DNA from: Patescibacteria group bacterium
GTDB taxonomy: Bacteria; Patescibacteriota; Minisyncoccia; UBA6257; UBA9933
Length of the DNA: 64,000 nt
Reading direction: 5' to 3'
Assembly: GCA_038062875.1 (NCBI GenBank)
Contig: JBBTWF010000001.1
Location: 27,769 to 91,768, forward strand
Shown here: positions 4,707-61,506 of the stretch, piece by piece
How the letters are laid out: the number at the start of each line of letters is the position of its first letter
Numbering within the stretch: position 1 is the stretch's first letter
Notes under the pieces: model-generated
Databases searched by the model: none
Told to the model about the DNA's origin: nothing
Seen by the model: only the letters and a program-made list of their open reading frames with translations
Position numbers and translations under genes: made by a program

Positions 4707-4783
4707 AATATAGAATATAGGATTTAGGGATTAAAACCGCCCCTAAATTCTAAATCCTAAATACTAAATTCTTTAAAATTATC
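4707..4783. repeat. Intergenic opposed-heptamer hairpin element (tagaatatagaatataggatttaggg ... ccctaaattctaaatcctaaatactaaattc)
   Basis: Same architecture as 3367-3434; lies between rplE and rpsN. Confidence 0.8.
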
Positions 4784-8469: not shown

Positions 8470-8548
8470 ATTAAGAATATAGAATTTAGAATATAGAATT
8501 TAGGGGCTTAAAATCCTAAATCCTAAATCCTAAATCTTAAATCCTACA
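8470..8548. repeat. Intergenic opposed-heptamer hairpin element (aagaatatagaatttagaatatagaatttagggg ... (tcctaaa)n)
   Basis: Same family as the elements at 3367 and 4707; lies between secY and adk. Confidence 0.8.
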
Positions 8549-24699: not shown

Positions 24700-25030
24700 G
24701 GGGCTAGAGCGAGCCGTGATAATTAAGAAAACCAATGCATGTGAGCGAGCCACAACTAAAGAGCAAACCAAGAGATAGAGCGAGTCGGGTTTATCAAGTA
24801 GCCCAATGATAAGGAGCGAGTCATCGCAATCAAGTAAACCAGAGGAGAAGAGCGAGCCAGAGTAGTTGAGAAAACCAGTCCGTGGGAGCGAGCCAGAGTA
24901 GTTGAGAAAACCAGCATAAGCGAGCGAGCCAAAAAATGAGATGAAAACCAAAGTATAGAAGCGAGCCGGGCATATAGAGAAAACCAAAGAAATAAAGCGA
25001 GCCATATGAGGAGAGAAACCCAGATACACA
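24700..25030 (+). repeat. Array of 9 direct repeats with about 36-bp period; each unit is GAGCGAGCC - variable 12-14 nt - AAAACCA - variable about 8 nt
   Basis: Unit starts at about 24706, 24743, 24777, 24814, 24850, 24885, 24921, 24958 and 24994; non-coding on the plus strand (stops in all frames). Confidence 0.8.
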
Positions 25031-25036
25031 GAGCTA

Positions 25037-25072
25037 AGCCCAGAAGTTGAATATTCAACTTCTGGGCTTTTT
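25037..25072 (+). terminator. Rho-independent terminator: 15-bp perfect stem AAGCCCAGAAGTTGA/TCAACTTCTGGGCTT followed by a T-run
   Basis: Read directly; it closes the HhH-gene plus repeat-array unit. Confidence 0.8.
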
Positions 25073-34502: not shown

Positions 34503-34568
34503 AATTTAGAATATAGAATTTAGGGAACGAAAATCCTAAATCCTAAATCCTAAATCCTAAATCCTAAA
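34503..34568. repeat. Intergenic opposed-heptamer hairpin element (tagaatttagaatatagaatttaggg ... (tcctaaa)x5)
   Basis: Same family as 3367 and 4707; between murA and mreB-1. Confidence 0.8.
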
Positions 34569-35576: not shown

Positions 35577-35677
35577 ATAGAATTTAGAATATAGGATTTA
35601 GAATTTAGGGAACTTTTAAAAATCGAATTTAATTCTTCCCCAAATTCTATATTCTAAATTCTAACCCCTTATTATTT
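35577..35677. repeat. Intergenic opposed-heptamer hairpin element with a longer loop
   Basis: atagaatttagaatataggatttagaatttaggg ... ccccaaattctatattctaaattctaacccc. Confidence 0.75.
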
Positions 35678-45657: not shown

Positions 45658-45725
45658 TAGGTTTTAGGTGTTAGATATTTTTAAGTTTTTTATCCTAAAA
45701 CCCAAAACCTAAAACCCAAAACCTA
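45640..45725. repeat. Opposed 8-mer repeat hairpin element (GGTGTTAGGTGATAGGTTTTAGGTGTTAG ... CCTAAAACCCAAAACCTAAAACCCAAAACCTAA) overlapping the 3' end of mrdA
   Basis: A variant of the heptamer family; the left arm encodes the last residues of PBP2. Confidence 0.75.
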
Positions 45726-46760
45726 ATGAATAGCGAACTACGACAAGACCTTGTTTCCGGCGACTGGATTGTTCTTTCTCCTCAAAGAGCAAAACGTCCG
45801 GCTGATTTAATTAAAAAATCGGAAAAAAGAAAAAAAGCGCCGCTCAAAGGGTGTCCCTTTGAAGACCCGCAGAAATCCGGTAACGGCGAACCCATATTAA
45901 TATATCCAACTAAAAGCCAAAAACTAAAAACTAAAAACTTGTTCGAATGGTGGGTTCAGATTATTCAAAATAAATATCCGGTTTTTGTATCAGGGTTAGA
46001 TTCGAAAGATGGTATTCATATTTGCGCCAGCGTATTTCAGAAGGGTCCTTATTTAGTTATAGACGGCAGAGGTTATCATGATTTAGTAATTACTAAAAAT
46101 CATCACAAAAATTTTGCTCATCTTCCTGAACAACAAGCAGAGGCGGTTTTAAAGATTTTTCAAAACCGTTATAAAATGTTTTTAAATGATTCATGTTTGG
46201 CTTATACTTCGATTTTTCACAATTGGGGACCGAAATCCGGGGCTTCAATTTATCACCCTCATTACCAGATAATCGCTTTGCCGGTGATTCCGCCGGATGT
46301 CCAGCATTCGCTTAATGGTTCATCTGATTATTTTAAAAAATATCGTAAATGCGTTCATTGCGTGATGATTGAATGGGAAAAGAAAAACCGTTCGCGAGTT
46401 GTTTTTGAAAATAAAGGCGCCATCGCTTTCACGCCTTTTGTTTCGCGAGAGCCGTTTGAAGTGAGAATTTTCCCCAAATCTCATTCTCCTTTTTTTGAGG
46501 ATGCTCCTAAAAAAGAATTAAGCGACGTTGTCGAGGCGTTACAAAATATTCTTTTGAAAATAGAAAAGAAATTAAATGACCCGGATTATAATTTTTTTAT
46601 TCATACGGCGCCGATTCGCGACAAACAAAAATATGGTCATTATCATTGGCACATTGAAATTTTGCCGAAAATAAGCACTTCTGCCGGATTTGAACTTGGA
46701 ACTGGAATTGAGATTACGGTCGTTGACCCGGACGAAGCGGCTAAAATTCTTAAATTGTAA
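45726..46760 (+). CDS. galT: Galactose-1-phosphate uridylyltransferase-like HIT-superfamily nucleotidyltransferase with an in-frame repeat insertion
   Basis: HxHxQ-type motif IYHPHYQII and a second half-barrel (HYHWHIEILPK); repeat (AAAAACT)n at 45912-45940 (KSQKLKTKNL). Confidence 0.65.
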   Translation: MNSELRQDLVSGDWIVLSPQRAKRPADLIKKSEKRKKAPLKGCPFEDPQKSGNGEPILIYPTKSQKLKTKNLFEWWVQIIQNKYPVFVSGLDSKDGIHICASVFQKGPYLVIDGRGYHDLVITKNHHKNFAHLPEQQAEAVLKIFQNRYKMFLNDSCLAYTSIFHNWGPKSGASIYHPHYQIIALPVIPPDVQHSLNGSSDYFKKYRKCVHCVMIEWEKKNRSRVVFENKGAIAFTPFVSREPFEVRIFPKSHSPFFEDAPKKELSDVVEALQNILLKIEKKLNDPDYNFFIHTAPIRDKQKYGHYHWHIEILPKISTSAGFELGTGIEITVVDPDEAAKILKL

Positions 46761-47404: not shown

Positions 47405-50030
47405 TCAAACCCATTCTGAGATTTTAGAAAATTTAAAATCAAGTGAAAGCGGATTAACGCAGGATGAGGCGGAGAAACGTTTAAAAGAATATGGTTTTAA
47501 TGAGTTGTCGGAAGTTAAACTTGACAATATTTTTATTATTTTTCTTCGGCAGTTTCAAAGTTCGTTGATTTATATTTTATTTGGCGCGGCTTTGGTTGTT
47601 TTTTATTTAGGCGGGGTAGTTGATGGATTAATTATTTTAGCGGTTCTTTTATTTAACGCTTTTGTCGGTACTCTTCAAGAAGGTAAAGCGCAAAACACTT
47701 TATCGGCTTTAAAAAAATTTATTAAAACCAAAGCCGTGGTTCTGCGCAACGGAAAAGAAATTATTGTTTCTGATGAACAGCTTGCGCCGGGCGATATTAT
47801 TATTCTTCAGGAAGGAGAGAAAATTCCGGCTGATGCCAGAGTAATTGTTTCTAATAATCTTAAAATTGACCAAGCTGCCTTGACCGGCGAATCAGAGTCG
47901 GTTTTTAAAATAGCAGAAATTCTTTCCCGTAAGGATTTACAAATCGCTGACCAGAAAAATATGGTTTTTAAAGGAACTTATATTGTTTCCGGAAATGGTC
48001 AGGCAGTGGCGGTTAATACCGGCGTCAATACGATAATTGGAAAAATCGGCCAAAAAATTGCCTTTATTGACACGGAAATACCGCTTAAAAAAGATATTCG
48101 TCAGCTTTCGCGATTTATTATTTTTACGGTCGCTTTAATCAGCGTTGTTTTATTTATCGCAGGTGTTTTTTTCGGAAAATCTTTAATAGAAATGTTTAAG
48201 GTTGTGGTTGCTCTTTCGGTTTCTGTTATCCCCGAGGGCTTGCCGATAGTTATTACTTTGGTCTTGGCTACCGGCGTCTGGCGGATGGCAAAACGCAATG
48301 CCTTAGTTAAACGGCTTCAAGCGGTTGAGGCCTTAGGCCAGACAAAAATCATCGCTCTCGATAAGACCGGAACTATCACAAAGAATGAATTGGCGGTTAA
48401 AAGAGTTTTTATTAATGGAAAATTTTTTGAAATTGGCGGAGTCGGTTATGAGCCAAAAGGAGAAATTTATTACGGCAAGCAATTAATTTCTCCGCCGGAT
48501 TTTCCGGAATTGATTTTGGCAGGTAAAATAGCGGCTTTTTGTTCTAATGCTTATGTTTTTTATTCAGAAGAAGACGAGACCTATAAAATCAGCGGTGATC
48601 CGACTGAAGCCGCGATTTTAGTTTTCAGTAAAAAAATGGGTTTTCAAAAAGAAATTATTGAAAAACAGCACCCACTTATTAAAGAAATCCCTTTTGATTA
48701 TAAAATAAAATATCGTCTGACTTTGCGGCAGAAAGATGAAAGGGGATTTTTATCAGTCATCGGCGCGCCAGAAGAGGTGCTTTTTTTATGCGAACTTACC
48801 AAAAAAGAAAAAGAGGATTTAGAAAGTATTTTTCACAAGATGTTAGCCGAAGGATTGCGGGTTTTGGCTTTTGCCTATAAAGAAGTCGGTCTTAAAAGAA
48901 AAATTGAGCTCGAGAAAACGGAATTTATTTTCGGCGGATTTTTCGGAATGAAGGACGGCTTGAAAGAAGAAGCCAAGAAAGCGATTAAACAAGCGCAGGA
49001 GGCGGGTATTAGAATAATAATGATTACCGGAGACCATAAAATAACCGCTCAGGTAATCGCCAAAGAAGCGGGAATTTTTAAAGATAACGACGAGGTTTTG
49101 ACCGGCAAAGATTTAGAAGAAATTTCTGAAGAAGAATTAAGTTTAAAACTGCCAAGGGTTTCGGTTTTCGCCCGAGTGACGCCTGAACATAAATTAAGAA
49201 TTATTGAGGCCTTTCGGAAAAGAAAAGAAATTATCGCGATGACCGGCGATGGCGTTAATGACGCGCCTTCTTTGGTGGCAGCTGATTTGGGAATAGCAAT
49301 GGGCAAAATCGGCACTGAAGTTGCCAAAGAAGCGTCTGATATTATTCTTTTGGACGATAATTTTGAAACTATCATTATAGCCATTGAAGAAGGAAGAAGT
49401 ATTTATAAGACGATTAAAAAAGTAATTACGTATCTTTTTTCCACAAGTTTAGGCGAGGTTTTAACTATTAGCATCGCGCTTTTTTTCGGTTATCCTTTGC
49501 CGCTTTTAGCCAGCCAAATTATTTGGCTTAATTTCGTCACGGACGGTTTTTTAACCGTGGCTTTAGCAATGGAGCCGAAAGAAAAAGGATTACTCCGGGC
49601 GAAATTTAAAAGACCAGGCAGATTTTTAGTTGATTCATTGATGATTCAGCGGATGTTCGTGATGGCTTTGCCAATGTCAATCGGCGCATTCTTTGTTTTT
49701 CAGAGATATTTAGATTTTGATTTAACTAAAGCCATGACGATGTGTCTGACAACTTTGGCGATTTTTCAATGGTTTAATGCCTTTAATTGCCGTTCGGAAA
49801 ACAAGTCAATTTTTCGAATGAATTTTTTCTCAAACAAATGGTTGATTGGAGCAATGTTTGTCGTAATTTCTTTTCAATTATTGGCAGTTTATCATCCAAT
49901 AATGCAGAGAATTTTACATACCGCCGCTTTGGAATTATCTGATTGGCTGATTGCTATCGCTATTGCTTTTTCTATTATAATATTTGAAGAAGTCAGAAAG
50001 GCAATTTACAGAAAGATTTTTAAGGATTAA
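47394..50030 (+). CDS. P-type cation-transporting ATPase (type II, Ca2+/Mg2+-like)
   Basis: DKTGTIT phosphorylation site, TGES actuator, MITGDH and GDGVNDAPSL; 10 TM segments. Confidence 0.9.
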   Translation: MFYNQTHSEILENLKSSESGLTQDEAEKRLKEYGFNELSEVKLDNIFIIFLRQFQSSLIYILFGAALVVFYLGGVVDGLIILAVLLFNAFVGTLQEGKAQNTLSALKKFIKTKAVVLRNGKEIIVSDEQLAPGDIIILQEGEKIPADARVIVSNNLKIDQAALTGESESVFKIAEILSRKDLQIADQKNMVFKGTYIVSGNGQAVAVNTGVNTIIGKIGQKIAFIDTEIPLKKDIRQLSRFIIFTVALISVVLFIAGVFFGKSLIEMFKVVVALSVSVIPEGLPIVITLVLATGVWRMAKRNALVKRLQAVEALGQTKIIALDKTGTITKNELAVKRVFINGKFFEIGGVGYEPKGEIYYGKQLISPPDFPELILAGKIAAFCSNAYVFYSEEDETYKISGDPTEAAILVFSKKMGFQKEIIEKQHPLIKEIPFDYKIKYRLTLRQKDERGFLSVIGAPEEVLFLCELTKKEKEDLESIFHKMLAEGLRVLAFAYKEVGLKRKIELEKTEFIFGGFFGMKDGLKEEAKKAIKQAQEAGIRIIMITGDHKITAQVIAKEAGIFKDNDEVLTGKDLEEISEEELSLKLPRVSVFARVTPEHKLRIIEAFRKRKEIIAMTGDGVNDAPSLVAADLGIAMGKIGTEVAKEASDIILLDDNFETIIIAIEEGRSIYKTIKKVITYLFSTSLGEVLTISIALFFGYPLPLLASQIIWLNFVTDGFLTVALAMEPKEKGLLRAKFKRPGRFLVDSLMIQRMFVMALPMSIGAFFVFQRYLDFDLTKAMTMCLTTLAIFQWFNAFNCRSENKSIFRMNFFSNKWLIGAMFVVISFQLLAVYHPIMQRILHTAALELSDWLIAIAIAFSIIIFEEVRKAIYRKIFKD

Positions 50031-50049
50031 ACTATTAATTAGATTACAT

Positions 50050-50856
50050 ATGAAGAAGCTCATAGTTTTTAACTGGAAAATGGCGCCCGACTCGTTAAAA
50101 AAAGCGAAGCAACTTTTTAATTTAGCCCTAAATTCTTCCGCCAAAGGCGGGAAATCTCATATTCTAAATTCTGAAATTGTTGTCTGCCCGCCGTTTATTT
50201 ATTTATCAGAACTCGTTGGTCTTATTAATAAGACCAAAATTAAATTAGGAGCGCAAAACGTTTTTTGGGAAAACCCATTGGTTGGTGGAGGCGTTTATAC
50301 CGGTGAAATCTCGCCAAAAATGCTGAAAAATTTAGGAGTGGAATACGCGATTATTGGCCATTCCGAACGCCGGAAATATTTAAACGAAACCGATGAAATA
50401 ATTAATAAAAAGGTTTTAGCGGCACTAAAAGCGGGGTTGAAAGTGATTTTATGTATTGGCGAGGATTTATCAATTCGCAAACGTGGCAAAAAAGCAGTTG
50501 AAAAATTTATTAAAAACCAATTAGGAAAAGACTTAAAAAATTTATCCCTAAATTCTATCCGCCAGCTGGCGGACTCTATTCTAAATTCTCGTCTTATTAT
50601 TGCTTACGAACCCATCTGGTCCATCGGCACCGGCCATTCTGATACTCCGCAGGACGCCTTGGAAATAATAAAATTCATTAAAGAAACCCTCAATTCTCAA
50701 TTCTCAATTCTCAATTCTAAAATATTATACGGCGGCTCTGTCGATTCCAAAAACATCGTTAAATTTTTAAAACATCCCGAAATCGACGGCGCGCTCATCG
50801 GCCACGCGAGCTTGAAAACGGGGGAAATCAGGAAAATTTTTAAAGAACTTTATTAA
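50050..50856 (+). CDS. tpiA: Triosephosphate isomerase with several in-frame repeat insertions
   Basis: FNWKM start motif, IIGHSERR, YEPIWSIGTG, YGGSV. Insertions: the palindrome at 50217-50238 and ctaaattct-type repeats at about 50540-50590 and 50690-50725. Confidence 0.85.
   Translation: MKKLIVFNWKMAPDSLKKAKQLFNLALNSSAKGGKSHILNSEIVVCPPFIYLSELVGLINKTKIKLGAQNVFWENPLVGGGVYTGEISPKMLKNLGVEYAIIGHSERRKYLNETDEIINKKVLAALKAGLKVILCIGEDLSIRKRGKKAVEKFIKNQLGKDLKNLSLNSIRQLADSILNSRLIIAYEPIWSIGTGHSDTPQDALEIIKFIKETLNSQFSILNSKILYGGSVDSKNIVKFLKHPEIDGALIGHASLKTGEIRKIFKELY
50217..50238. repeat. 22-bp perfect palindrome TTGGTCTTATTAATAAGACCAA in frame in tpiA (LVGLINKTKI)
   Basis: An identical 22-mer occurs at 60657-60678 in pgk. 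Confidence 0.9.
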
Positions 50857-50928
50857 AAAAAGAAAAGGTGTTATAATTTTAAAAAACAGCGGTTTAGTCG
50901 GCTGCTGCTTAATAATAATAAAAAAATA

Positions 50929-51687
50929 ATGGAAAACAACAACGGCGTAAAAGTCAAAAATACGGCGGTCGCGGTTTTTATGGTTTTTCTGACGTTAATA
51001 CTTTTTTATTCTCTTTTTTGGGGGCCGGCGAAGAAATTCGGCGATTCTTTAATATCGGCAAAAACCGTTTCCGTATCTGCCGAAGGTAAAGTAACAGTAT
51101 CACCAGATATCGCAAAAATTTCTTTTTCGGTGGTTTCCGAAGGCGTCAATCCAAAAGCGTTAGCCGAGGATAACAATAAAAAAATGAATTCCGCCATCAA
51201 TCTTATAAAGTCGCAGGGCGTTGATGAAAAAGACATTAAAACCGTTGAGTACAATCTAAATCCGCGTTACGAATACGATGAAAAGACAAAGAAAACATTT
51301 ATCAGCGGTTATTCTTTGACTCAGTCGGTCTTGGTAAAAGTCCGCGATCTTGATAAGACAGCGGAAATTTTGGCTGGTTTGCCTGAATTAGGCATTAATC
51401 AAATCGGTCAAATTTCTTTTGAAATTGACGAGCCGGAAAAATATTTAGTTGAGGCAAGAGATCAAGCGTTCAATAAAGCAAAAATAAAAGCCGGGGAAAT
51501 GGCGGCGAAAAATGGCGTTCGGCTCGGGAAAGTGATTAATTTCAGCGATTATCAATCAGGCCCGATTCCTTATTACAATTCGTTCGGCAAGGGCGGGCAG
51601 ATGGAAGCGTTGTCTCCAGCGCCGTCAATCCAACCGGGTTCGCAGGAAGTAACGGTGAATGTGAGCGTGACTTATGAAATTAAATAA
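50929..51687 (+). CDS. SIMPL-domain (DUF541) exported protein
   Basis: N-terminal TM/signal; ...SVSAEGKV...ISFSVVSEG... and the C-terminal pattern typical of SIMPL proteins. Confidence 0.65.
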   Translation: MENNNGVKVKNTAVAVFMVFLTLILFYSLFWGPAKKFGDSLISAKTVSVSAEGKVTVSPDIAKISFSVVSEGVNPKALAEDNNKKMNSAINLIKSQGVDEKDIKTVEYNLNPRYEYDEKTKKTFISGYSLTQSVLVKVRDLDKTAEILAGLPELGINQIGQISFEIDEPEKYLVEARDQAFNKAKIKAGEMAAKNGVRLGKVINFSDYQSGPIPYYNSFGKGGQMEALSPAPSIQPGSQEVTVNVSVTYEIK

Positions 51688-52474
51688 ATCAGCTGTGAGC
51701 GCTATAATTATTTTAGTGGCTTTGGCGACGATTATCGGTTTATCGGGATTAAGTTTTATTATTCCTTCGGAAACGCGTAAAGTATCGGATAATCTCGATG
51801 ATAATCAACGTGAATCAATAAATATGGAGAAGATTTTTCTTACAGCAAAAGATGGAGTGAAAATCGCCGCTAATTTATATTCCGTGAAGCCGACTCGCGG
51901 TTGGTTGGTTTTGACGCATATGATGCCGGCGACGAAAGAGTCATATCAGGACTTAGCCAAAAGATTTCAGAATCTCGGTTATGAATGTCTTGCTATTGAT
52001 TTAAGAGGGCACGGAGAGTCGGACAAAGGCCCCGATGGTTTTATGAAGTTTTCCGACAGCGAGCATCAAAAAAGTATTCTTGATTTAGAGGCAGCGGTTG
52101 ATTATTTGATTGAAAATAGGGGAGCGAGCGTTGTTAGAATTTCTTTTATCGGCGCTTCCATTGGAGCGAATTTATCGTTACAATATATAAGTGAGCATTC
52201 GGAATTTAAGACAGCGATTTTACTTTCGCCTGGTTTGAATTATAAAGGGATTAAAACCGAGCAGATGGTTGAAAAATTAAAAGATGGGCAAAAAGTTTTT
52301 TTCGTAAGCAGTCGTGATGATGTGTCCAACGCCGACCAAAACCAGGTGCTTTACGATTTAACGCCAGATGGTATAATAAATAATATCAAGATTTATGAAA
52401 CCGCAGGCCACGGCACGGATATTTTAGAAAACGAACCGAAATTAATAAATTTAATTATTGATTTTATAAAATAA
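51674..52474 (+). CDS. Alpha/beta-hydrolase-fold protein
   Basis: Nucleophile elbow GASIG and HG motif near the C-terminus; N-terminal TM. Confidence 0.6.
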   Translation: MKLNKSAVSAIIILVALATIIGLSGLSFIIPSETRKVSDNLDDNQRESINMEKIFLTAKDGVKIAANLYSVKPTRGWLVLTHMMPATKESYQDLAKRFQNLGYECLAIDLRGHGESDKGPDGFMKFSDSEHQKSILDLEAAVDYLIENRGASVVRISFIGASIGANLSLQYISEHSEFKTAILLSPGLNYKGIKTEQMVEKLKDGQKVFFVSSRDDVSNADQNQVLYDLTPDGIINNIKIYETAGHGTDILENEPKLINLIIDFIK

Positions 52475-52507
52475 AATGAATTTGTTAATTAAGCATAGAA
52501 AATAAAA

Positions 52508-53149
52508 ATGAATAAAAAAGATTATATACTTGGAATTTCATCCGGACTACTTATAGGGGTTTTGGCTTTACCTGTAATAAGGGCTATAAAGCCGGAGATA
52601 TACGGAAAATTCGCATTTTTAGTTATACCATTTTTTTTAATCGGCACGCCTCTTGGACTGATAGTTGCTAATTATATCGGCAGAAAAATTTCAATAATAT
52701 GGCAGATTGGGAAATTCGGCGTAATCGGTGTCTTGAATACATTGGTTGACTGGGGAGTTCTGGCGATATTAATTTTTTCTTTCAGGAAATATTTGAATAT
52801 AGATTCAAAAGATTTACTGATAGCTGGAATCGCGTTCTACTCTTTATACAAAGCAATTTCGTTTATAATCGCGAATATAAATAGTTATTACTGGAATAAA
52901 TACTGGACATTCGCAACCGGTGTTGCCAAAAAAACAAAGGCGGAGTTTCTGCAATTTTTTATGGTTAGTATTTTAGGTTTTTCCATTAATGTCGGTATTG
53001 CTTCTTATGTATTTAAATATATTCATCCTATTGGCGGGCTTAATTTTGACCAATGGGGCATTATCGGAGCGGCAGTAGGAAGCGTGGTTGGCTTGGCTTG
53101 GAATTTTATCGGCTATAAATTTATTGTTTTCCACAGCCCAAGGTCTTGA
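52508..53149 (+). CDS. GtrA-family membrane protein (polysaccharide synthesis or flippase accessory)
   Basis: KFGVIGVLNTLVDWGVL, a GtrA signature. Confidence 0.7.
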   Translation: MNKKDYILGISSGLLIGVLALPVIRAIKPEIYGKFAFLVIPFFLIGTPLGLIVANYIGRKISIIWQIGKFGVIGVLNTLVDWGVLAILIFSFRKYLNIDSKDLLIAGIAFYSLYKAISFIIANINSYYWNKYWTFATGVAKKTKAEFLQFFMVSILGFSINVGIASYVFKYIHPIGGLNFDQWGIIGAAVGSVVGLAWNFIGYKFIVFHSPRS

Positions 53150-53184
53150 CATTTATAAGTGAATTATATTATAATAGCAATAAT

Positions 53185-53385
53185 AGATGAGTATCAGTAA
53201 TCCTTAACGATGATATCGATTGAGGATTGCCCACAATTTGTTTGGCCGAGCACATAATATTTATGTGCTCGGTTTTGTTTTTACTGGATTTTTTGTATAC
53301 TTAAATTGGAGCCGCGGGACGAGCACTCATCTATTACAAACAGAATTGGAGGTCACCGCTCGCGGCTCCACGAGTTTGTATTTTC
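53185..53385. ncRNA. Candidate structured RNA or leader upstream of murB: long-range pairing AATAGATGAGTAT/GCACTCATCTATT enclosing two hairpins
   Basis: Inner hairpins CCGAGCACATAATATTTATGTGCTCGG+T-run and GGAGCCGCG...CGCGGCTCC; the GC-rich ORF 53220-53420 in the track is probably spurious. Confidence 0.35.
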
Positions 53386-53391
53386 CCGATT

Positions 53392-54381
53392 ATGTTTCAA
53401 AAAAGAGTTTTACTCAGTAAATACAGTAATTTTAAAATCGGGGGACCGGCGAAATATTTTTTTGAAGCAAAAAATGTAGAAGAAATTATAAAAGCGGTTA
53501 AATTAGCGAAGCGTTTAAAAACGCCTTTTTTTATTTTAGGCGGCGGAACCAATATTTTATTTAGCGATAAAGGATTCAACGGGTTGGTTTTAAAACCTAA
53601 TATTAAATTTATTAAAAGAAATGGAAATTTTTTGCGAGTCGGCGTTGGAGTCCAAATATCTCAATTGCTTAATTATTCAATAAATAATAATTTAACTGGC
53701 TTAGAGTGGTCGGCCGGTATTCCCGGAACGATTGGTGGAGCGGTTAGGGGCAATGCCGGCGCGTTCGGCGGAGAAATGAAAGATATAATCACGGAGGTTT
53801 CGAGTTTGGATATTTCAGAAGCGCGTTTTAAAATTATAAAAAGAAAAAAATCAGATTGTTGTTTTGGTTATCGTTCGAGTATATTCTCCGCCGAAGGCGG
53901 ATCCGTCTCTGGCGGAAAAAATTCAAAAACGAAGGAGATTATTACGGAAGTTGTTTTGCGATTAAAAAAAGGCGAAAAGAGTAAAATAAAAGAAATTATA
54001 AATAGAAACATCAGTTACCGTCGGAAAAATCACCCTCTGGGATATCCCAGCGCCGGAAGTGTTTTTAAAAATGTGGATATCGTTGATTTTCACGAATATG
54101 AGCGCGAATATCGTAAATATTTAAATAAAAGATTCGTAAAAATTAGCGGAAAATTCGCACCGATTAACGATGGTAAGATTCCAGCCGCTTATTTAATTGC
54201 AGAAGCCGATTTAAAGGGAATTTCTCGCGGCGGAGCGATGATTTCGTCTAAACATCCGAATTTTATTGTTAATATTTCTAATGCTACGGCAAAAGATGTA
54301 AAAAATTTGATTAAATTAGCAAAGAAAGAAGTAAAAAATAAATTTAAAGTAGATTTAGAAGAGGAAATAGTTTTTGTTTGA
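53392..54381 (+). CDS. murB: UDP-N-acetylenolpyruvoylglucosamine reductase with an in-frame GC-palindrome insertion
   Basis: FAD-binding FKIGGPAKYFFE...GGGTNILF, catalytic Ser region; the insertion at 53886-53915 encodes SAEGGSVSGGKN. Confidence 0.8.
   Translation: MFQKRVLLSKYSNFKIGGPAKYFFEAKNVEEIIKAVKLAKRLKTPFFILGGGTNILFSDKGFNGLVLKPNIKFIKRNGNFLRVGVGVQISQLLNYSINNNLTGLEWSAGIPGTIGGAVRGNAGAFGGEMKDIITEVSSLDISEARFKIIKRKKSDCCFGYRSSIFSAEGGSVSGGKNSKTKEIITEVVLRLKKGEKSKIKEIINRNISYRRKNHPLGYPSAGSVFKNVDIVDFHEYEREYRKYLNKRFVKISGKFAPINDGKIPAAYLIAEADLKGISRGGAMISSKHPNFIVNISNATAKDVKNLIKLAKKEVKNKFKVDLEEEIVFV
53886..53915. repeat. GC-rich palindromic in-frame mini-insertion CTCCGCCGAAGGCGGATCCGTCTCTGGCGGA (family copy 4, slightly degenerate)
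   Basis: Compared directly with the copies at 5164, 6724 and 19459. Confidence 0.8.
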
Positions 54382-54645
54382 GGAAAATTTTTATTTTTAA
54401 TGAAATTAAAGTTATCCACAGTTTACATTTAATCTAATTGTTCTAAAATTAATATAAAGATTGAAAAATTATTTTTTAAATTATCAATCTTTTAGTAAAG
54501 TTATATAATCTAATACGGTTGAATGGTCGGCAATCGTGTTAAATTTAAAAATTCTTAATTAGTCGATATTGAGCTTAACGTGAAATATCGACAATACGCC
54601 ACAATGGCAAAGAAAAAAGCAGGAAAAAAAAAGAAGAAATAAATT

Positions 54646-54706
54646 CTTTCCCCCTCTTTCCCCACTTAATAAAAGCGACAAGAAAGAGGGGTTTTTATTT
54701 TTAATA
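54646..54706 (+). terminator. Hairpin CCCTCTTTC...GAAAGAGGG followed by a T-run, just after a 12-codon lysine-rich mini-ORF (MAKKKAGKKKKK, 54604-54642)
   Basis: Read directly; upstream of hpf. Confidence 0.45.
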
Positions 54707-54727
54707 AAATAAGTTATAATATATAAT

Positions 54728-55081
54728 ATGAAAATCAACATTAAAACAACCAACTTGGAAATCACCCCCGCTATTAACGATTATTTAGAATTAAAAATCG
54801 GCTCTCTTAAGCGTTTTCTTAATAAATTTGAAAAAGACGATGAGGTGATTATTTCCACGGAAATTGCCAAGACAACCAAGCATCACAAAAAGGGAGATGT
54901 GTTCTACGCTGAAGCCAATATTTGTTTACCGGGAAAAATTTTAAGAGCCGAACATTCCGATTGGGATATTAGGGTGGCGATTGATAATGTTAGGGACAAA
55001 CTTCAACAAGAAATAAAGAAATATAAAACAAAGAAAGAAATTTCTCGTAAAATTGGAGCTAAGTTGCGCGGGAAAAAATAA
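54728..55081 (+). CDS. hpf: Ribosome hibernation promoting factor / RaiA family
   Basis: MKINIKTTNLEITPAINDYLELKIGSLKRF, the YfiA/HPF fold signature. Confidence 0.8.
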   Translation: MKINIKTTNLEITPAINDYLELKIGSLKRFLNKFEKDDEVIISTEIAKTTKHHKKGDVFYAEANICLPGKILRAEHSDWDIRVAIDNVRDKLQQEIKKYKTKKEISRKIGAKLRGKK

Positions 55082-55096
55082 TTTGCGGATTATTAT

Positions 55097-57592
55097 ATGT
55101 TTAATTTTTTTAAAAATATTTCAAAAAAACAATCTTATGCGCCTCTAATCGAGGCGATTAATAATTTTGAGCCGGCTTTAGAAAAATTAACGGATGAAGA
55201 ATTAAAAAAGAGAAGCGAAGGAATTAAAAAATCTGTTGCTGAGGATACTAATTTTAATTTAGACGATTTATTACCTGAAGCGTTCGCTTTAACGCGGGAA
55301 GCCGCGAAACGAACACTTAATCAGCGTCACTTTGACGTTCAATTAATCGGTGGCATTGTTCTCCACCAAGGAAAAATCGCAGAGATGCTTACTGGAGAAG
55401 GAAAAACTTTGGCAGCCACGGCGCCAGCTTATTTAAACGCTTTAACCGGAAAAGGCGTTCATATTATTACTGTGAATGATTATTTGGCTCGGCGCGACGC
55501 AGTTTGGATGGGACAGATTTATTACGCGTTAGGAATGTCGGTGGGGTGTTTGACTCATGAATCCGCTTATTTATACGACCCGGGTTATGTCAATGAAAAA
55601 GATAAAGAACGCGATATTTTGGGCGGCTTTAAGGTGATTCAGGATTTTTTAAAACCAATTAGTCGTCGCGAAGCGTATCAAGTCGATATTCTTTACGGCA
55701 CCAATCATGAATTCGGCTTTGATTTTCTTCGGGATAATTTAGCTTATCGTTTGGAAGACCAGGCCCAAAGCAATAAATACAATTATGCGATTATTGACGA
55801 AGTTGACAGTATTTTAATTGACGAAGCTAGGACGCCATTGATTATCGCGGCGCCGGACGCCGAATCCAGCGATTATTATCGGATTTTTTCCAAAGTCGTC
55901 GAGCGGCTCCAGAAAGATGAGGACTACGCGGTTGATGAAAAAATGAAATCAGTTAATATTACTGACGTTGGAATCGATAAAGTTGAAAAAATTCTTAGCG
56001 TTGAAAATTTTTATGGTTCGGAAAATTTCCGTTTAGTCCATTATTTGGAAGAATCTTTACGCGCTAAAGCGCTGTTTCATTTAGATAAGAATTATGTTGT
56101 GAAGAATGGCGAAATTATTATTGTTGACGAGTTTACGGGTAGGATGATGCACGGCCGCCGATATTCCGGCGGACTTCATCAGGCGATTGAAGCCAAAGAA
56201 GGCGTAGCCATCAAGCAGGAGTCAAAGACATTCGCCCAGATTACAATTCAGAATTATTTCCGTTTATACAAAAAAATCGCCGGGATGACAGGAACGGCTC
56301 AAACATCAGCTGAAGAATTTCATAAAGTTTATAATTTAGAAGTAGTTAGTATCCCGTCTAATAAACCGACAATCAGGCAAGATTTATCAGACCTTATTTA
56401 TAAAAACCTTGAGGCAAAATATAGGGCTGTTATTGACGAAATTAAAAATCGGCATTCAATGGGCCAGCCGATTTTAATAGGCACCGCTTCAATTGAAAAA
56501 AATGAAATTTTGTCGGATTTACTGAAACAAGTCGGCATCCCTTACGAGGTCTTAAACGCTAAGAATCATGAGCGGGAAGGCGCGATTATCGCCCAAGCCG
56601 GAAAATTGGGAGCTGTTACAGTTGCCACTAATATGGCTGGCAGAGGAGTTGACATTGTTTTAGGCGGCAATCCGGCAGACCCATTGGAAGCTCAAAAAAT
56701 AAAAGAAATCGGCGGTCTTCATATTATCGGCACTGAACGGCACGAAGCTCGGCGAATTGATAATCAATTGAGGGGAAGAGGCGGTCGGCAAGGCGACCAG
56801 GGTTCTTCCCAATTCTTTTTGTCTTTAGAAGACGATTTGCTTCGGATTTTCAGCGGCGAAAAAATAAAGTCGTTTATGGAAAGATTTAATTTGCCGGAAG
56901 ACCAGCCGATTGAATCAAAATTGGTCTCAAAAGTCGTTAACGAGGCGCAAAAGAAAATTGAGGGATTAAATTTTGACGCCCGAAAACATCTTTTGGATTT
57001 TGACGATGTTTTAAACAAACAGAGAACGGCGGTTTATTCAAAGCGTCAGGCAATTTTGGGATCTCAAGCTATCGGCGAAGAGCTTAAAAAAATTATTTTT
57101 AGCGCTTTTGAACGGATTAAAAATCAAGTTGCGAACGAAGAAGAATTAAAAAAGATTTTAAATGAATCTGGTATTGAATTATCGGAAGGCGGACTTCTGA
57201 ATATTGACGTGGAAATAGAAAGCCTTCTTAAAGATTTTCAAGAACAAACCAAAATGAAAATTTTGGGAATTTTAGATATGCTTTGGATGAGTCATTTGGA
57301 AAATATGGAGGCATTGTCGGAATCGGTTCGGTTAAGGGCTTACGGTCAGCACGACCCATTAGTTGAATATCGGCATGAAGGCAGACGTTTGTTTAAGGAT
57401 TTATTCGTTAATTTTGAGGGATTGGTATTCGGCAATATTTTTAAAACACAAGCTGGCACCGGCAATCAATCTCAAGGAGTAAAAAAAGTTGTTTTGTCTA
57501 ATGAAATTAATAGCGGACAGAAAAAAATAGGACGAAATGATTTATGTTTTTGCGGTTCTAATAAAAAATATAAAAAATGCCACGGAGCTTAA
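55097..57592 (+). CDS. secA: Preprotein translocase ATPase SecA (with a C-terminal zinc-binding tail)
   Basis: DEAD-like motor motifs (MLTGEGKT, DEVDSILIDEARTPLII), preprotein-binding domain and wing domain; the tail reads CFCGSNKKYKKCHG. Confidence 0.95.
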   Translation: MFNFFKNISKKQSYAPLIEAINNFEPALEKLTDEELKKRSEGIKKSVAEDTNFNLDDLLPEAFALTREAAKRTLNQRHFDVQLIGGIVLHQGKIAEMLTGEGKTLAATAPAYLNALTGKGVHIITVNDYLARRDAVWMGQIYYALGMSVGCLTHESAYLYDPGYVNEKDKERDILGGFKVIQDFLKPISRREAYQVDILYGTNHEFGFDFLRDNLAYRLEDQAQSNKYNYAIIDEVDSILIDEARTPLIIAAPDAESSDYYRIFSKVVERLQKDEDYAVDEKMKSVNITDVGIDKVEKILSVENFYGSENFRLVHYLEESLRAKALFHLDKNYVVKNGEIIIVDEFTGRMMHGRRYSGGLHQAIEAKEGVAIKQESKTFAQITIQNYFRLYKKIAGMTGTAQTSAEEFHKVYNLEVVSIPSNKPTIRQDLSDLIYKNLEAKYRAVIDEIKNRHSMGQPILIGTASIEKNEILSDLLKQVGIPYEVLNAKNHEREGAIIAQAGKLGAVTVATNMAGRGVDIVLGGNPADPLEAQKIKEIGGLHIIGTERHEARRIDNQLRGRGGRQGDQGSSQFFLSLEDDLLRIFSGEKIKSFMERFNLPEDQPIESKLVSKVVNEAQKKIEGLNFDARKHLLDFDDVLNKQRTAVYSKRQAILGSQAIGEELKKIIFSAFERIKNQVANEEELKKILNESGIELSEGGLLNIDVEIESLLKDFQEQTKMKILGILDMLWMSHLENMEALSESVRLRAYGQHDPLVEYRHEGRRLFKDLFVNFEGLVFGNIFKTQAGTGNQSQGVKKVVLSNEINSGQKKIGRNDLCFCGSNKKYKKCHGA

Positions 57593-57599
57593 TTTTTTG

Positions 57600-59396
57600 A
57601 TGAATAATATAAGAAATTTCGTTATTATCGCGCATATTGACCACGGCAAGTCAACTTTAGCTGATAGATTTCTGGAGATTACCGGAACTGTTGAATCCCG
57701 CAAAATGAAAGAGCAGTACTTAGATCAATTGGATTTAGAAAGAGAACGTGGGATTACTATAAAAATGGCTCCTGTGCGGATGTCCTATATTCTTTCGCCT
57801 CAGGCGGAAAATTCTCAACCCTACATTCTTAATCTTATTGACACGCCAGGCCATCCGGATTTCTCTTACGAGGTCTCTCGGGCCTTAATAGCTGTTGAGG
57901 GAGCTATTTTATTGGTTGATGCCACTCAAGGTATTCAGGCGCAAACTTTAGCTAATTTTCATATTGCTAAACGAGCGGGTTTAAAAATAACAGGCGCAGT
58001 CAATAAAATAGATATGAATCCGCCGCAGTTGTTTCAAGTAATGAAAGAGTTAGCGGATTTGATAGGTTGTTCTATTGAAGAAATTTATAAGATTTCCGCA
58101 AAAACTGGAGAAGGAGTGGAGGAACTTTTAAAAGCGGTTATTAGAAATACGCCACCGCCGAAAAATTTAATGCCCGAATCCACTCGAGCTTTGGTGTTTG
58201 ATTCTTTTTACGATGACCATAAAGGAATTATCGCGTCAGTAAGAGTTTTTGATGGCGAAATAAAAGGCGACAATGATATGCGTTTAATCGCCACCGATAC
58301 TCCTTTTAAGATTAAAGAAATCGGTTATTTTTCTCCGCAATTGATGCCGGCAAAATCATTAAATACCGGAGAAATTGGTTATGTCGCTACTGGTATTAAA
58401 GATCCGGAGAATGTAAAAATCGGCGATACGATAACAATTGGCGAATCGCAAAGCGCAAATCGTAAAGCGTTGGCATTGGAAGGTTATCAGGAGCCAAAAC
58501 CGGTGGTTTTTGTGTCTTTTTATCCGGAAGAAAGTGATAATTACGATGATTTAAAAAGAGCGCTGCAGAAATTAAAATTAAACGATTCAGCGTTGAAATT
58601 TGAACCTGACTTTAATGATGTTTTGGGAAGGGGATTTAAGGGGGGATTTTTAGGCAAACTTCATTTTGAAATTACGGCAGAGCGTCTTGAGCGGGAATTC
58701 AATATGAAAACCATCAATAGTTTCCCGTCCGTAGCTTATAAGATAAAAAAGAAAAATGAATGGTTGGTTATTGAAAATCCCAAAGATCTTTCGGGCGATT
58801 TCGACGAAATCCAAGAGCCTATAGTTAATTTGGAAGTTATTACGCCAACGATTTATCTGGGCGGTATTTTTCAACTAAAAGAGATTTTCAGGATAAATGA
58901 TATTCATGCCCATAATCAAGGAGACAGAACGTTAATCACCGCGAAAATGCCTTTAGCTGAATTAATTTCCGATTTTGACGACAAACTTAAATCCGTTTCC
59001 AACGGTTTCGCTTCTTTCAGTTATGAATTAGTCGATTACAAGAAGTCAGATTTGCAAAAATTGGAAATTTTAGTCGCTGGCGATTTAGTCGCCGGTTTAA
59101 TAAGGGTCTTTCCCAGAAAATCCATTGAGCATGAAGCGAGAAAAATGGTTGAGAAACTTAAAAAAGTATTGCCTCGTCAGCAGTTTAGCCAGGCGATTCA
59201 GGCGGTTGTTGGGAGCAAGATTATTGCCCGCGAGACGGTCCCGGCTTTCAGGAAAGACGTTACGGGTTATCTTTACGGAGGCGATCGCACCCGTAAAATG
59301 AAGCTCTGGAAAAAACAGAAAAAAGGCAAGAAGCGGCTAGAGAAGATGGGAAGCGTAAAAATATCTACAGACGTATTCAAAAAAATGATACAATAA
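57600..59396 (+). CDS. lepA: Elongation factor 4 (LepA)
   Basis: NFVIIAHIDHGKSTL, DTPGH, NKID G-motifs plus a LepA-specific C-terminal domain; ATG at 57600. Confidence 0.95.
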   Translation: MNNIRNFVIIAHIDHGKSTLADRFLEITGTVESRKMKEQYLDQLDLERERGITIKMAPVRMSYILSPQAENSQPYILNLIDTPGHPDFSYEVSRALIAVEGAILLVDATQGIQAQTLANFHIAKRAGLKITGAVNKIDMNPPQLFQVMKELADLIGCSIEEIYKISAKTGEGVEELLKAVIRNTPPPKNLMPESTRALVFDSFYDDHKGIIASVRVFDGEIKGDNDMRLIATDTPFKIKEIGYFSPQLMPAKSLNTGEIGYVATGIKDPENVKIGDTITIGESQSANRKALALEGYQEPKPVVFVSFYPEESDNYDDLKRALQKLKLNDSALKFEPDFNDVLGRGFKGGFLGKLHFEITAERLEREFNMKTINSFPSVAYKIKKKNEWLVIENPKDLSGDFDEIQEPIVNLEVITPTIYLGGIFQLKEIFRINDIHAHNQGDRTLITAKMPLAELISDFDDKLKSVSNGFASFSYELVDYKKSDLQKLEILVAGDLVAGLIRVFPRKSIEHEARKMVEKLKKVLPRQQFSQAIQAVVGSKIIARETVPAFRKDVTGYLYGGDRTRKMKLWKKQKKGKKRLEKMGSVKISTDVFKKMIQ

Positions 59397-59403
59397 TAAC
59401 GGC

Positions 59404-59664
59404 ATGAAGATTATCATTGTTATCATTATCGTTATTGTTATTATTATGGTGTTGGCCTATGTTTATTTCAGTTTTCAGGAACAGCGACAGATGAAAGAAA
59501 ATCTTTCCAATTTAAACGCGCAAATTAAAACGCTTGTTGGAGAAAATGACGAGCTTAAATCGGAAATTGAATATTTCTCTCATCCGGAAAATCTAGAAAA
59601 GGAATTGAAAACGAAATTTAATTATCGGAAACCGGACGAAAAAATGATGATTATTGTACCGTGA
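59404..59664 (+). CDS. FtsB/DivIC-like septum formation initiator (TM plus coiled coil)
   Basis: Hydrophobic N-terminus, then a heptad coiled coil (NLNAQIKTLVGENDELKSEIEY) and KPDEK, resembling the FtsB PGE motif. Confidence 0.45.
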   Translation: MKIIIVIIIVIVIIMVLAYVYFSFQEQRQMKENLSNLNAQIKTLVGENDELKSEIEYFSHPENLEKELKTKFNYRKPDEKMMIIVP

Positions 59665-60248
59665 TTAAAATGAAATACAAAAAAATACTATTTTGGCTTA
59701 TCCCCCTTATTTTAATTGCCGGAGGACTATATTTTATATTATCCGATTCTTATCCTGTGGCTTTGGTTAATGAGCAGATAATTGAGGCGAGAGATTTTGA
59801 AAAGGACTATGCCAGCGCTCTGCGATATTATCAGAGTGTTTTTAAGGTTTACAAGGAAGATGCGGCAAAACTTGATTCCCAAGAATCTAAACAGGAAATC
59901 AGGCGGGCGACTTTGGATAAATTGATTGAAAATAAACTGATTCGCGAAAATTTGGAGAAATTGATTAAAAACGATGAATTAAAAAATATGGTTGCTCAAA
60001 AAATCAAAGAAGCCGTTAAAGAAAGCCCCGATATTCAAAAAGGCGTTCAGACGCTTTATGGGCTTTCATTAGATGATTTTAAGCAAAGAATTTTAGCGCC
60101 TCAAGCGGAAAGGGAAATTCTTGAAGGTCGGTTGTATCTTGACGGTAAAAAAATAGATGAATGGCTGAAACAAGAAAAATCCAAAGCCAAAGTAATAATT
60201 TTAATTTCCGGTTTTGGTTGGGACGGAGAAGGAGTTATAATTAAATAA
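59661..60248 (+). CDS. Hypothetical membrane-anchored SurA-N-terminal-like chaperone domain protein
   Basis: N-terminal TM plus a helical domain; weak. Confidence 0.35.
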   Translation: MIKMKYKKILFWLIPLILIAGGLYFILSDSYPVALVNEQIIEARDFEKDYASALRYYQSVFKVYKEDAAKLDSQESKQEIRRATLDKLIENKLIRENLEKLIKNDELKNMVAQKIKEAVKESPDIQKGVQTLYGLSLDDFKQRILAPQAEREILEGRLYLDGKKIDEWLKQEKSKAKVIILISGFGWDGEGVIIK

Positions 60249-60254
60249 CTAATT

Positions 60255-60325
60255 TGCGGGATTAGTATAGTGGTAATACGCAACCTTCCCAAGGTTGAGT
60301 CGCCGGTTCAATTCCGGTATCTCGC
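60255..60325 (+). tRNA. tRNA-Gly (anticodon CCC)
   Basis: Manual cloverleaf: acceptor GCGGGAU/AUCUCGC (one G-U pair), D-arm AGUAUAGUGGUAAUAC, anticodon stem CAACC/GGUUG with loop UUCCCAA, T-arm GCCGG-UUCAAUU-CCGGU. Confidence 0.85.
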
Positions 60326-60336
60326 TTTTTTAAAAA

Positions 60337-61506
60337 ATGAAATTTTTAAGCGATTTAAAACAGAAAAATTTACGAGATAAAACCTGTCTTTTACGGGTTG
60401 ATTTTAATATTCAAAATGTTGATTTACGTAGATATTCGCAAAAAGCTCCGTTTAGAATAGAAGCGGTTTTGCCGACGATTAAATTTTTAACCAGCAGGGG
60501 AGCGAAGGTGGTGATTTTGAGCCATCGCGGTCGCCCCAAAGGGGCAAACCTCGCCCAAAAGGCGGGAAGGCCAACTTCGTTATCTCTTAAGCCGTTCGTA
60601 AAAATTTTATCTTCTTTATTAAAAAATCCTGTTAATTTTATAACTCTAAGCGAGCTTGGTCTTATTAATAAGACCAAGCAAAAAATAAAAAATGCGAAAC
60701 CTGGGAGTGTTTTTTTGGTAGAGAACCTTCGTTTTTTCCCGGTCGAAGAAAAAAATGACAAAAAATTCGCAAAGCGGCTGTCTTTTTTGGGTGATATTTA
60801 TATAAATGACGCTTTTGCGGTGAGCCACCGAAAAAATGCTTCGGTTGTCGCCATTACGAAGTTTCTTCCAAGCTATGCCGGCTTGCTTTTGGAAAAAGAA
60901 ATAAAAAATTTAAATAAGGCGATGAAAAATCCTCAAAAACCTTTAGTCGTTATTTTGGGCGGCGCTAAAATTTCAGATAAAATCAGCGTGATTAAAAATT
61001 TTCTAAAAAATGCCGATTGTTTTTTGCTCGGCGGGGGAGTGGCAAATACTTTTTTTGCGGCTCAAGATTTGCCGGTCGGCGGTTCGCTTTATGACAAAAA
61101 CTCAATTCCTTTTATTGCTAATTTATTGAAGTTTAATTTTAACAAATTGATTTTGCCGATAGATTTAGTTGTTCATCAACGAGATATTTTAGATATCGGA
61201 TTGAGAACTATTGAAAAATATTCAAAAATCATTAAGGATGCCAAAACAATCATTTGGAACGGGCCAATGGGATATATTGAAGATCCTAAATTCGCAAATG
61301 GTTCAAAAGAAATAGCTAAGGTGATTATGGCTAACAAAAAAGCATTTGTAGTGGTTGGCGGCGGCGAAACAGTCGTTTCGTTAAAGTCCCCAAATTCTAA
61401 ATCCTATATTCTAAATTCTAATGTTTTCATTTCCACCGGCGGTGGAGCAATGTTGGAATATTTGGCGGGCAAAAAACTGTCGGGTATAACGGCTTTAAAT
61501 AAATAA
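60337..61506 (+). CDS. pgk: Phosphoglycerate kinase with in-frame repeat insertions
   Basis: N- and C-domain motifs (RVDFN, SHRGRPKG, GGGVANTF, GPMGY, GGGA). Insertions: the palindrome at 60657-60678 and (ctaaattct)-type repeats at 61389-61421. Confidence 0.9.
   Translation: MKFLSDLKQKNLRDKTCLLRVDFNIQNVDLRRYSQKAPFRIEAVLPTIKFLTSRGAKVVILSHRGRPKGANLAQKAGRPTSLSLKPFVKILSSLLKNPVNFITLSELGLINKTKQKIKNAKPGSVFLVENLRFFPVEEKNDKKFAKRLSFLGDIYINDAFAVSHRKNASVVAITKFLPSYAGLLLEKEIKNLNKAMKNPQKPLVVILGGAKISDKISVIKNFLKNADCFLLGGGVANTFFAAQDLPVGGSLYDKNSIPFIANLLKFNFNKLILPIDLVVHQRDILDIGLRTIEKYSKIIKDAKTIIWNGPMGYIEDPKFANGSKEIAKVIMANKKAFVVVGGGETVVSLKSPNSKSYILNSNVFISTGGGAMLEYLAGKKLSGITALNK
60657..60678. repeat. 22-bp perfect palindrome TTGGTCTTATTAATAAGACCAA in frame in pgk (ELGLINKTKQ)
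   Basis: Identical to the tpiA copy at 50217-50238. Confidence 0.9.

Follow-up and report, generated by a model that had tools for sequence, protein, structure and literature searches.

Why do two enzymes of glycolysis carry the same stretch of DNA, letter for letter, inside their genes? We examine this question in a 64,000-nucleotide stretch of an uncultured Patescibacteria group bacterium (contig JBBTWF010000001.1, positions 27,769 to 91,768), which we call the window. Here, an identical 22-nt perfect palindrome, TTGGTCTTATTAATAAGACCAA, lies within the genes for triose-phosphate isomerase (tpiA) and phosphoglycerate kinase (pgk). We discuss the conservation and symmetric variation of this palindrome in related genomes, its association with a gene of the Trp-repressor family, and the explanations that compete to account for it. 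The observation is real and non-random. The best-supported reading of the sequences is that the palindrome represents a variant of the TrpR-family operator, for which there is also a candidate family of regulators.

Conservation and symmetric change of the palindrome

The window holds exactly 2 copies of TTGGTCTTATTAATAAGACCAA, at 50216-50237 and 60656-60677. A search of the window at up to 3 mismatches gave no third match, and 100 dinucleotide-preserving shuffles gave none at all; these shuffles (0/100), together with the covariation described below, rule out a chance repeat. The first copy lies in tpiA (50050..50856, plus strand; Pfam TIM, E=8e-73) at gene nucleotides +167..+188, where it encodes (V)GLINKTK. 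The second lies in pgk (60337..61506, plus strand; Pfam PGK, E=5e-114) at +320..+341, encodes (L)GLINKTK, and is enclosed in a 26-nt perfect palindrome, GCTTGGTCTTATTAATAAGACCAAGC, at 60654..60679; neither site is assigned a strand. Both genes write GLINKTK in frame with the codons GGT CTT ATT AAT AAG ACC AAR, and with its preceding codon the tpiA site reads GTT GGT CTT ATT AAT AAG ACC AAA. Of the alternative frames, read from the sequence, one has TAA TAA and the other encodes VLLIRP. A preliminary description had reported this identity and named the same two host genes, correctly in both respects; its coordinates were off by one base.

The site is retained in orthologues. Apart from an identical entry, the closest homologues of the two enzymes are annotated as Patescibacteria or Candidatus Wolfebacteria and are 64-70% identical; syntenic contigs, from Hainich groundwater and other metagenomes, share 66-78% DNA identity with the window. 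In tpiA, the site is kept at the same codon position in L001, L013, L045, L047, and L048. The first two of these loci retain the 18-nt core, and the others carry perfect palindromes of altered sequence: TTGGTCTTATATATAAGACCAA in L045 (peptide GLIYKT), CTGGTCTTATTAATAAGACCAG in L047 (GLINKTR), and GCTGGTCTTCTTAAGAAGACCAGC in L048 (GLLKKTS). In pgk of L050, L051, L052, and L035, the codons GGT CTT ATT AAT AAG ACC are unchanged at the same position. The flanks pass from CTT..AAG (window, L050, L051) through CTT..AGG (L052) to CCT..AGG (L035), where the symmetry is once more perfect and the peptide, with P for L and R for K, is PGLINKTR. A decayed, degenerate copy occupies this position in L053. 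Four of these loci (L047, L050, L051, and L052) were retrieved by protein and not by DNA pattern. The tpiA and pgk orthologues share 58-72% protein identity and 66-76% DNA identity with the window. The six core codons match those of the window (6/6) in every one of the 7 orthologues that encode GLINKT; gene-wide, codons for the same amino acid are identical in only 45-61% of cases.

Change in one arm is matched by change in the other. Paired double changes are found at the centre (ATTAAT, ATATAT, CTTAAG, ACTAGT) and in the flanks (TT..AA, CT..AG, GCT..AGC). Over 37 sites of the family, the covariation score is 0.236, compared with 0.180±0.015 in shuffles (0/500 reach 0.236) and 0.10-0.14 for slid partners, which served as controls. 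The pair counts in these sites are UA 30 and CG 4 for positions 19-26; AU 29, CG 4, and UA 1 for 20-25; and GC 31 and AU 3 for 14-31. GTC/GAC is invariant across the 37 sites, and the adjoining positions are nearly so; since the pattern used to collect the sites fixed GTC/GAC and limited two adjoining positions to Y/R, only the remaining columns are unbiased. Some variants are common to the loci of one genome: tpiA and murD of L048 both have the CTTAAG centre, and in L057 GGTCTC..GAGACC is present in both arms of 2 of 3 copies and in one arm of the third. Because both arms change together and the synonymous core codons are identical, the constraint lies on the symmetry of the nucleic acid; it is this symmetry that selection maintains, and the peptide follows.

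We scanned for the 18-nt core in 596 Gbp of genomes, which gave 11 loci, and in a metagenome collection, which gave 33. Many matches are evidently due to chance, such as terminator-like hairpins and GLINKT in rumen P-type ATPases, a marine kinase-like protein, ArgB, and L22. In the rumen contigs L012, L016, L030, and L042, diverged P-type ATPase genes carry the identical 18-mer and encode DGLINKTKK near the N-terminus, probably an effect of ascertainment among many orthologues. A coherent set comes from contigs of Patescibacteria or groundwater: tpiA (L001, L013), pgk (L035), dnaG (L020/L022), leuS (L014), smc (L026), L017, a gene for an LTD/PKD protein (L041), and intergenic copies in Saccharibacteria (L004, L007, L010). 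A relaxed pattern added murD (L048) and a further pair of copies in L047, of which one precedes the tpiA start codon by 39-82 nt. The copies in dnaG, leuS, smc, murD, and the LTD-domain gene of these related genomes are in frame. The 26-mer of the window pgk recurs identically in dnaG of L020/L022 and, in L033, upstream of the TrpR-like gene discussed below. Copy number is low, with 2 in the 64-kb window and 0-4 per related locus of 8-20 kb.

These distributions bear on several simple accounts. A REP or other generic dispersed repeat, with many and mostly extragenic copies, does not fit the count of 2 in 64 kb at up to 3 mismatches. Phage origin is rejected, since viral contigs gave no matches to the palindrome. 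For a recombination site, which the preliminary description had entertained, we found no evidence. Its idea of a site shared within one pathway holds in part: tpiA and pgk keep the site in relatives, a further copy lies in a glycerate kinase gene, and the L047 copy stands upstream of tpiA. However, the palindrome also occurs in frame in dnaG, leuS, smc, murD, and the LTD-domain gene. A motif limited to glycolysis is thereby rejected, as 18-26-mers are in frame in dnaG, leuS, smc, and the LTD-domain gene of related contigs.

Palindromes around a Trp-repressor-family gene

Palindromes of this family (GGTCT-N8-AGACC, 20 bp) flank a gene of the Trp-repressor family in all related genomes examined (5/5). 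L033, a 115-kb Hainich contig, holds 4 copies within 2.6 kb in a minus-strand operon: two upstream of a 131-aa TrpR-like gene, a third shortly past its end, and the fourth within the glycerate kinase gene that follows, where it is translated as VSLIRP. The 131-aa gene matches Pfam PF01371 (Trp_repressor) at 40.8 bits against a cut-off of 27 (E=2e-10). The proximal site abuts the -35-like hexamer of a promoter-like TTGGCT-16-TATAAT, whose end is 7 nt from the ATG. The remaining loci (L054, L056, L057, and L059) were fetched by protein identity alone, at 58-63% to the L033 protein, and in 4 of 4 the family palindromes stand on both sides of the TrpR-like gene. L057 has TTTGGTCTCATTAATGAGACCAAA and an imperfect proximal copy upstream, and a 40-nt perfect palindrome downstream; L054 has (T)GGTCTCTTTAAAGAGAC upstream of the likely true start and TTGGTCTCTTTAATGAGACCAA downstream. 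In the diverged locus L056, a 38-nt perfect palindrome with the core AGTCCTCTTAAGAGGACT lies upstream, and a copy directly follows the stop codon. L059 has an imperfect copy upstream and, downstream of the regulator gene, the same 22-mer, TTGGTCTTATATATAAGACCAA, that forms the tpiA site of L045. In each of the five genomes, the start codon of the regulator is preceded by family sites at a distance of about 25-120 nt. In the four loci fetched by protein, the sole copy away from the TrpR-like gene is a degenerate site within the neighbouring PEGA gene of L056. The five loci differ in the genes that surround the TrpR-like gene, and no transposase was seen beside any copy of the palindrome.

In 2 of the 5 loci, archease and/or rtcB (RNA ligase) adjoin the TrpR-like gene (L057, 400-822 and 2162-3607; L059, 2292-2741), and a palindrome sits between it and archease/rtcB in both. 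The TrpR-like regulator may be linked to RNA repair.

The encoded proteins make up a subfamily of their own. They have a length of about 131 aa, fall into 222 clusters at 50% identity (E<=1e-10), and score below the NCBIfam equivalog cut-offs for YerC/YecD and TrpR. Their conserved basic C-terminal tail, ..FPT..GKGRWRFLN (last 10 residues of P0241-P0252 in alignment A2), has no counterpart in HisR or TrpR and is of low confidence in the structure model. Sequence and predicted fold best match the TrpR-like/HisR structures 3frw, 3g1c, and 3kor, followed by Escherichia coli TrpR; the model of the L033 protein has a pLDDT of about 86 over residues 11-90 and matches these three structures at probability 1.00. 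With a PF01371 score above the gathering threshold and a predicted TrpR-like fold, the protein next to the L033 palindromes belongs to the Trp repressor family.

Operators of this family offer a direct comparison. YerC of Bacillus subtilis is HisR, a TrpR-family repressor; operators in this family are palindromes of 20 bp whose consensus varies with the lineage, TrpR monomers recognise GNACT half-sites at 8 bp spacing, and a site of its own precedes about half of hisR genes (PMC9413887). The putative 20-bp operator core of the window, TGGTCT-TATTAATA-AGACCA, matches this geometry exactly: two 5-nt half-sites, here GGTCT, 8 bp apart. As with TrpR and HisR, there is a site upstream of the regulator's own gene (in relatives), variants are lineage-specific, and the associated protein has a TrpR-like fold. 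Unlike in those systems, the consensus matches neither the TrpR nor the HisR motif, the window sites lie inside coding sequence, the targets are not genes of amino-acid biosynthesis, and the Patescibacteria proteins fall below the NCBIfam cut-offs and carry the extra GKGRWRFLN tail. A GntR/HutC dre-like site, 'TGGTCT-AGACCA', was also considered and was dropped, with half-sites 8 bp apart and a TrpR-family gene as the associated gene.

With moderate confidence, we predict that the palindrome within tpiA and pgk is the operator of a Patescibacteria TrpR-like regulator. The dimeric transcription-factor operator proposed in the preliminary description is thus the part of that proposal that fares best, given the TrpR-family layout and the variants flanking a Trp-repressor-family gene in all five relatives. 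A homodimeric helix-turn-helix regulator of the Trp-repressor family (YerC/HisR-like), widespread in these Patescibacteria, would recognise the palindrome, each monomer reading one GGTCT half-site of the 20-bp palindrome across the 8-bp spacing. We infer that this protein binds the palindrome DNA and that the genome of the window encodes it. Since the regulator gene is bracketed by sites in relatives, binding at its own promoter would provide autoregulation. In tpiA and pgk, the encoded GLINKTK would be a by-product of the constraint on the DNA. Bound at +167 in tpiA and +320 in pgk, the protein would most plausibly act as a roadblock to elongation; alternatively, it could serve as a looping partner of a promoter-proximal site, possible where a promoter copy exists, as in L047. 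These modes of action are suggested because tpiA and pgk lie in long co-directional gene strings almost without intergenic DNA: only 20 nt separate the start of tpiA from the P-type ATPase gene before it, and 10 nt that of pgk from a tRNA-Gly(CCC) gene (60256-60326). Given this short distance, pgk and the tRNA gene are probably co-transcribed. A promoter scan that covered the tpiA site found no promoter-like element overlapping it.

Intragenic operators are known to act as roadblocks or looping partners; examples include the E. coli PurR site in purB, lac O2 in lacZ, gal OI in galE, and CcpA cre sites in open reading frames. Like these, the present sites lie a few hundred bp inside a gene, and in L047 a further, promoter-proximal copy lies about 230 bp ahead of the site. 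Unlike them, the present sites are known from sequence alone, keep the same codons across distant orthologues, and dictate the peptide. Neither the pairing of this protein with this site nor conserved in-frame operators in Patescibacteria turned up in our literature search.

As for targets, the window sites in tpiA and pgk and the L033 site in glycerate kinase hint that three-carbon metabolism may be under the control of the regulator. The window has no sites other than these two, and neither gapA nor eno, the further glycolytic genes that were looked for, has a homologue among its about 55 genes. Any regulon is broader or heterogeneous, because sites also lie in dnaG, leuS, smc, and murD, and because rtcB, archease, and gatC are neighbours of the regulator.

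Several observations weigh against an operator. The intragenic position, at +167 in tpiA and +320 in pgk, is atypical for TrpR/HisR operators, and a six-frame hmmsearch of the 64-kb window found no TrpR-like gene. No coherent regulon is established, because the sites lie in functionally unrelated genes (dnaG, leuS, smc, murD, LTD). The centres differ within one genome, with both ATTAAT and ACTAGT in L047. TIM relatives with and without the site are interleaved in a neighbour-joining tree that is star-like and poorly resolved, so that either gain and loss are frequent or the tree is uninformative; monophyly of the site-bearing TIMs was dropped as a proposition, since this tree gives no resolution. 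Finally, perfect symmetry reaches 34-40 nt in some copies, with outer arms that bear no relation to one another; these extended copies lie approximately at L057 2022-2061, L056 3842-3879, L047 4590-4633, L041 58-93, L017 555-590, and L004 3571-3606. Such lengths exceed the need of a 20-bp operator and suggest the formation of hairpins or cruciforms, or symmetrisation by template switching.

Insertion, hairpin, and coding explanations

How did the sites arise? Alignments of 120 homologues each of TIM and PGK place both palindromes in hypervariable surface segments. Between 'PPF.YL' and 'KLGAQ', the TIM of the window has 15 residues, compared with 13 in the shortest homologues; in PGK, the segment exceeds that of P0154, a typical close homologue, by 1 residue. 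The host proteins are therefore not longer by the length of an element, which excludes an insertion element of the type of Rickettsia palindromic elements (RPE) or of miniature inverted-repeat transposable elements (MITE). In this comparison of homologues, GLINKTK does not emerge as the extra segment supposed in the preliminary description, TIM standing about 2 residues above its shortest homologues and PGK 1 above P0154; nor do we find the family of in-frame palindromic insertions that it had raised. Residues loosely similar to the encoded peptide are already present in homologues at both positions, and the murD site of L048 takes the place of natively similar sequence (PLGLLKKT compared with PVIEILPKL). 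Because there is zero length gain and homologues encode similar residues there, the sequences suggest that sites were made by substitution at permissive, already similar positions.

Throughout the clade, the palindrome position in TIM is a hot spot of repeat DNA; homologues fill it with peptides of several recurring types. In the TIM gene of L058 (10001-10780; same genome as L054), (GTCGTCA)x4 stands exactly at the palindrome position and encodes SSVVSRRSSV; this 'SSVV' type had been considered as another hairpin and is a heptamer tandem repeat instead. Many other TIMs have repeat peptides of the LKNLK- or LLKSKN-type at this position.

The most durable alternative, which we regard as unlikely, is a hairpin-forming, self-maintaining palindromic repeat of the REP kind, which would persist and spread by self-pairing in single-stranded DNA, while intrastrand template switching or gene conversion restores or extends its symmetry. 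On this account, the TrpR-like gene would be merely a preferred neighbour or helper of the element, and the surface segments of tpiA and pgk would tolerate any sequence. The perfect palindromes of 34-40 nt with unrelated outer arms speak for such a repeat, as do the symmetric change of the arms, the differing neighbourhoods of the TrpR-like gene among the five loci, and the abundance in the window of other small repeats that are likewise in frame in genes. It also gains from the other repeat DNA at the TIM position, including the (GTCGTCA)x4 of L058 and the recurring peptide types, which are scattered over the TIM tree. Yet TIM and PGK show no gain in length and similar native residues were replaced, the copy number is low (2 in 64 kb), and no transposase lies next to any copy. 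An invariant GGTCT/AGACC at a fixed 8-bp spacing fits sequence-specific recognition better than pairing alone, and the core is identical at synonymous sites across orthologues that are 58-72% identical in protein. Moreover, in the loci fetched by protein the degenerate L056 PEGA site is the sole copy away from the TrpR-like gene.

Known palindromic repeats provide a frame for this comparison. RPE are in-frame insertions of 100-150 bp that lengthen the host protein; REP are high-copy and extragenic and are accompanied by the Y1 transposase RAYT. The present palindrome resembles RPE in lying in frame within conserved genes and resembles REP/RAYT in flanking a dedicated protein gene. Unlike RPE, it measures only 22-26 bp and adds no length; unlike REP/RAYT, it occurs in few copies, and a helix-turn-helix is the sole domain of the neighbouring protein. 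Perfect inverted repeats of up to 284 bp with both arms translated are described in mitochondrial genes of Nematomorpha (PMC6649704). The Nematomorpha repeats share with the present sites a perfect inverted repeat in protein genes and the translation of both arms, and differ in being much longer, organellar, and without an associated DNA-binding protein.

The two ideas can also be joined. The palindrome and the TrpR-like protein might form a self-propagating pair, in which the helix-turn-helix protein recognises an extruded hairpin or cruciform of its site; there, the palindrome would be written at new places, permissive segments of essential genes among them, and repaired and lengthened through template switching or gene conversion. 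We consider this improbable. If true, sequences of TIM, PGK, MurD, DnaG, and others are being overwritten by a palindrome system that has no transposase.

Comparably doubtful is a hairpin that functions in RNA: a stem of 9-13 bp with a UUAA loop in the tpiA and pgk mRNAs, serving as a signal for processing, stability, or ribosome pausing, or as the target of an RNA-binding protein. As RNA, the family sites fold at -10 to -31 kcal/mol, and the window copies are stable, at -10 kcal/mol for tpiA and -16.7 for pgk, with z-scores of -3.4 and -7.2. Stem changes are compensatory, and pgk of L052 (CTT..AGG) offers one sense-strand G.U intermediate. Against this, the few mismatches lack a sense-strand G.U bias (A.C in L053, sense-strand C.A in glycerate kinase of L033), many copies stand between genes, before or after them and close to promoters, and translating ribosomes would unwind an intragenic stem. 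No Rfam family matches: a search of 49900-61000 with Rfam 15 returned only tRNA-Gly and two sub-threshold chance matches, none of them at the palindromes. The window copies have no U tract after them, and an intrinsic terminator is excluded, with nothing terminator-like at the tpiA site and A-rich sequence after the hairpin in both copies.

Least probable by far is a coding coincidence, in which both enzymes need a GLINKTK-like peptide and codon bias supplies the same DNA: homologues do have loosely similar residues at both segments, and GGT CTT ATT AAT AAG ACC does encode a natural GLINKT in unrelated organisms (the rumen P-type ATPases, marine kinase-like protein, ArgB, and L22 named above), but shuffles gave no match to the 22-mer, the peptide shifts to GLIYKT, GLLKKT, and PGLINKTR exactly as the symmetry of the DNA requires, and non-coding copies adjoin the TrpR-like gene, so that compensatory changes and non-coding copies effectively refute it.

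Other repeats of the window and the meaning of the palindrome

The window contains further repeat families. Between genes, tandem arrays of heptamers build long inverted structures in which AGAATAT/AGAATTT faces CCTAAAT/CCTAAAA (3358-3452, 4693-4780, 8460-8554, 34494-34588, 35574-35677, and 45642-45749). Shorter heptamer runs are in frame in tpiA (50686-50726; LNSQFSILNSKIL) and pgk (61387-61427; SPNSKSYILNS), and a run of the SKSYILNS type is also present in dnaG of L020/L022. A second family consists of TTCCGCC-N3/4-GGCGGA hairpins, often as a tandem pair, both intergenic and in frame, e.g. SAEGGSVSGGKN in murB. These hairpins lie at 5152-5200, 6712-6760, 19447-19495 (in the open reading frame 17611-19701), and 53875-53923 (in murB); single copies lie in tpiA at 50136-50153 and 50559-50572, and a degenerate one in pgk at about 60550-60569. 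A copy of this family precedes the 22-nt palindrome in both tpiA and pgk. At 24707-24921, intergenic DNA holds a 36-nt direct repeat in three copies (GAGCGAGCCAGAGTAGTTGAGAAAACCAG..); at 25036-25069, just ahead of a gene starting at 25104, there is a separate perfect palindrome of 34 nt, AAGCCCAGAAGTTGAATATTCAACTTCTGGGCTT.

Transcriptional regulation in the Patescibacteria, or candidate phyla radiation (CPR), is almost undescribed; these bacteria cannot be cultured by themselves and have few regulators. An operator of a TrpR-like regulator would pair a specific protein subfamily with a specific, putative 20-bp site, and its candidate targets include the regulator's own gene, tpiA, pgk, the glycerate kinase operon, and the rtcB/archease neighbours. 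The palindrome is also an unusually clear case of a DNA-level signal that constrains the sequence of an enzyme, with GLINKTK, GLIYKTK, GLLKKTS, and PGLINKTR tracking the symmetry of the site. This is relevant to annotation and to the interpretation of 'conserved motifs' in CPR enzymes. If the sites do serve as roadblocks, they would reveal a way of adjusting single genes within the long, promoter-poor gene strings of such organisms.

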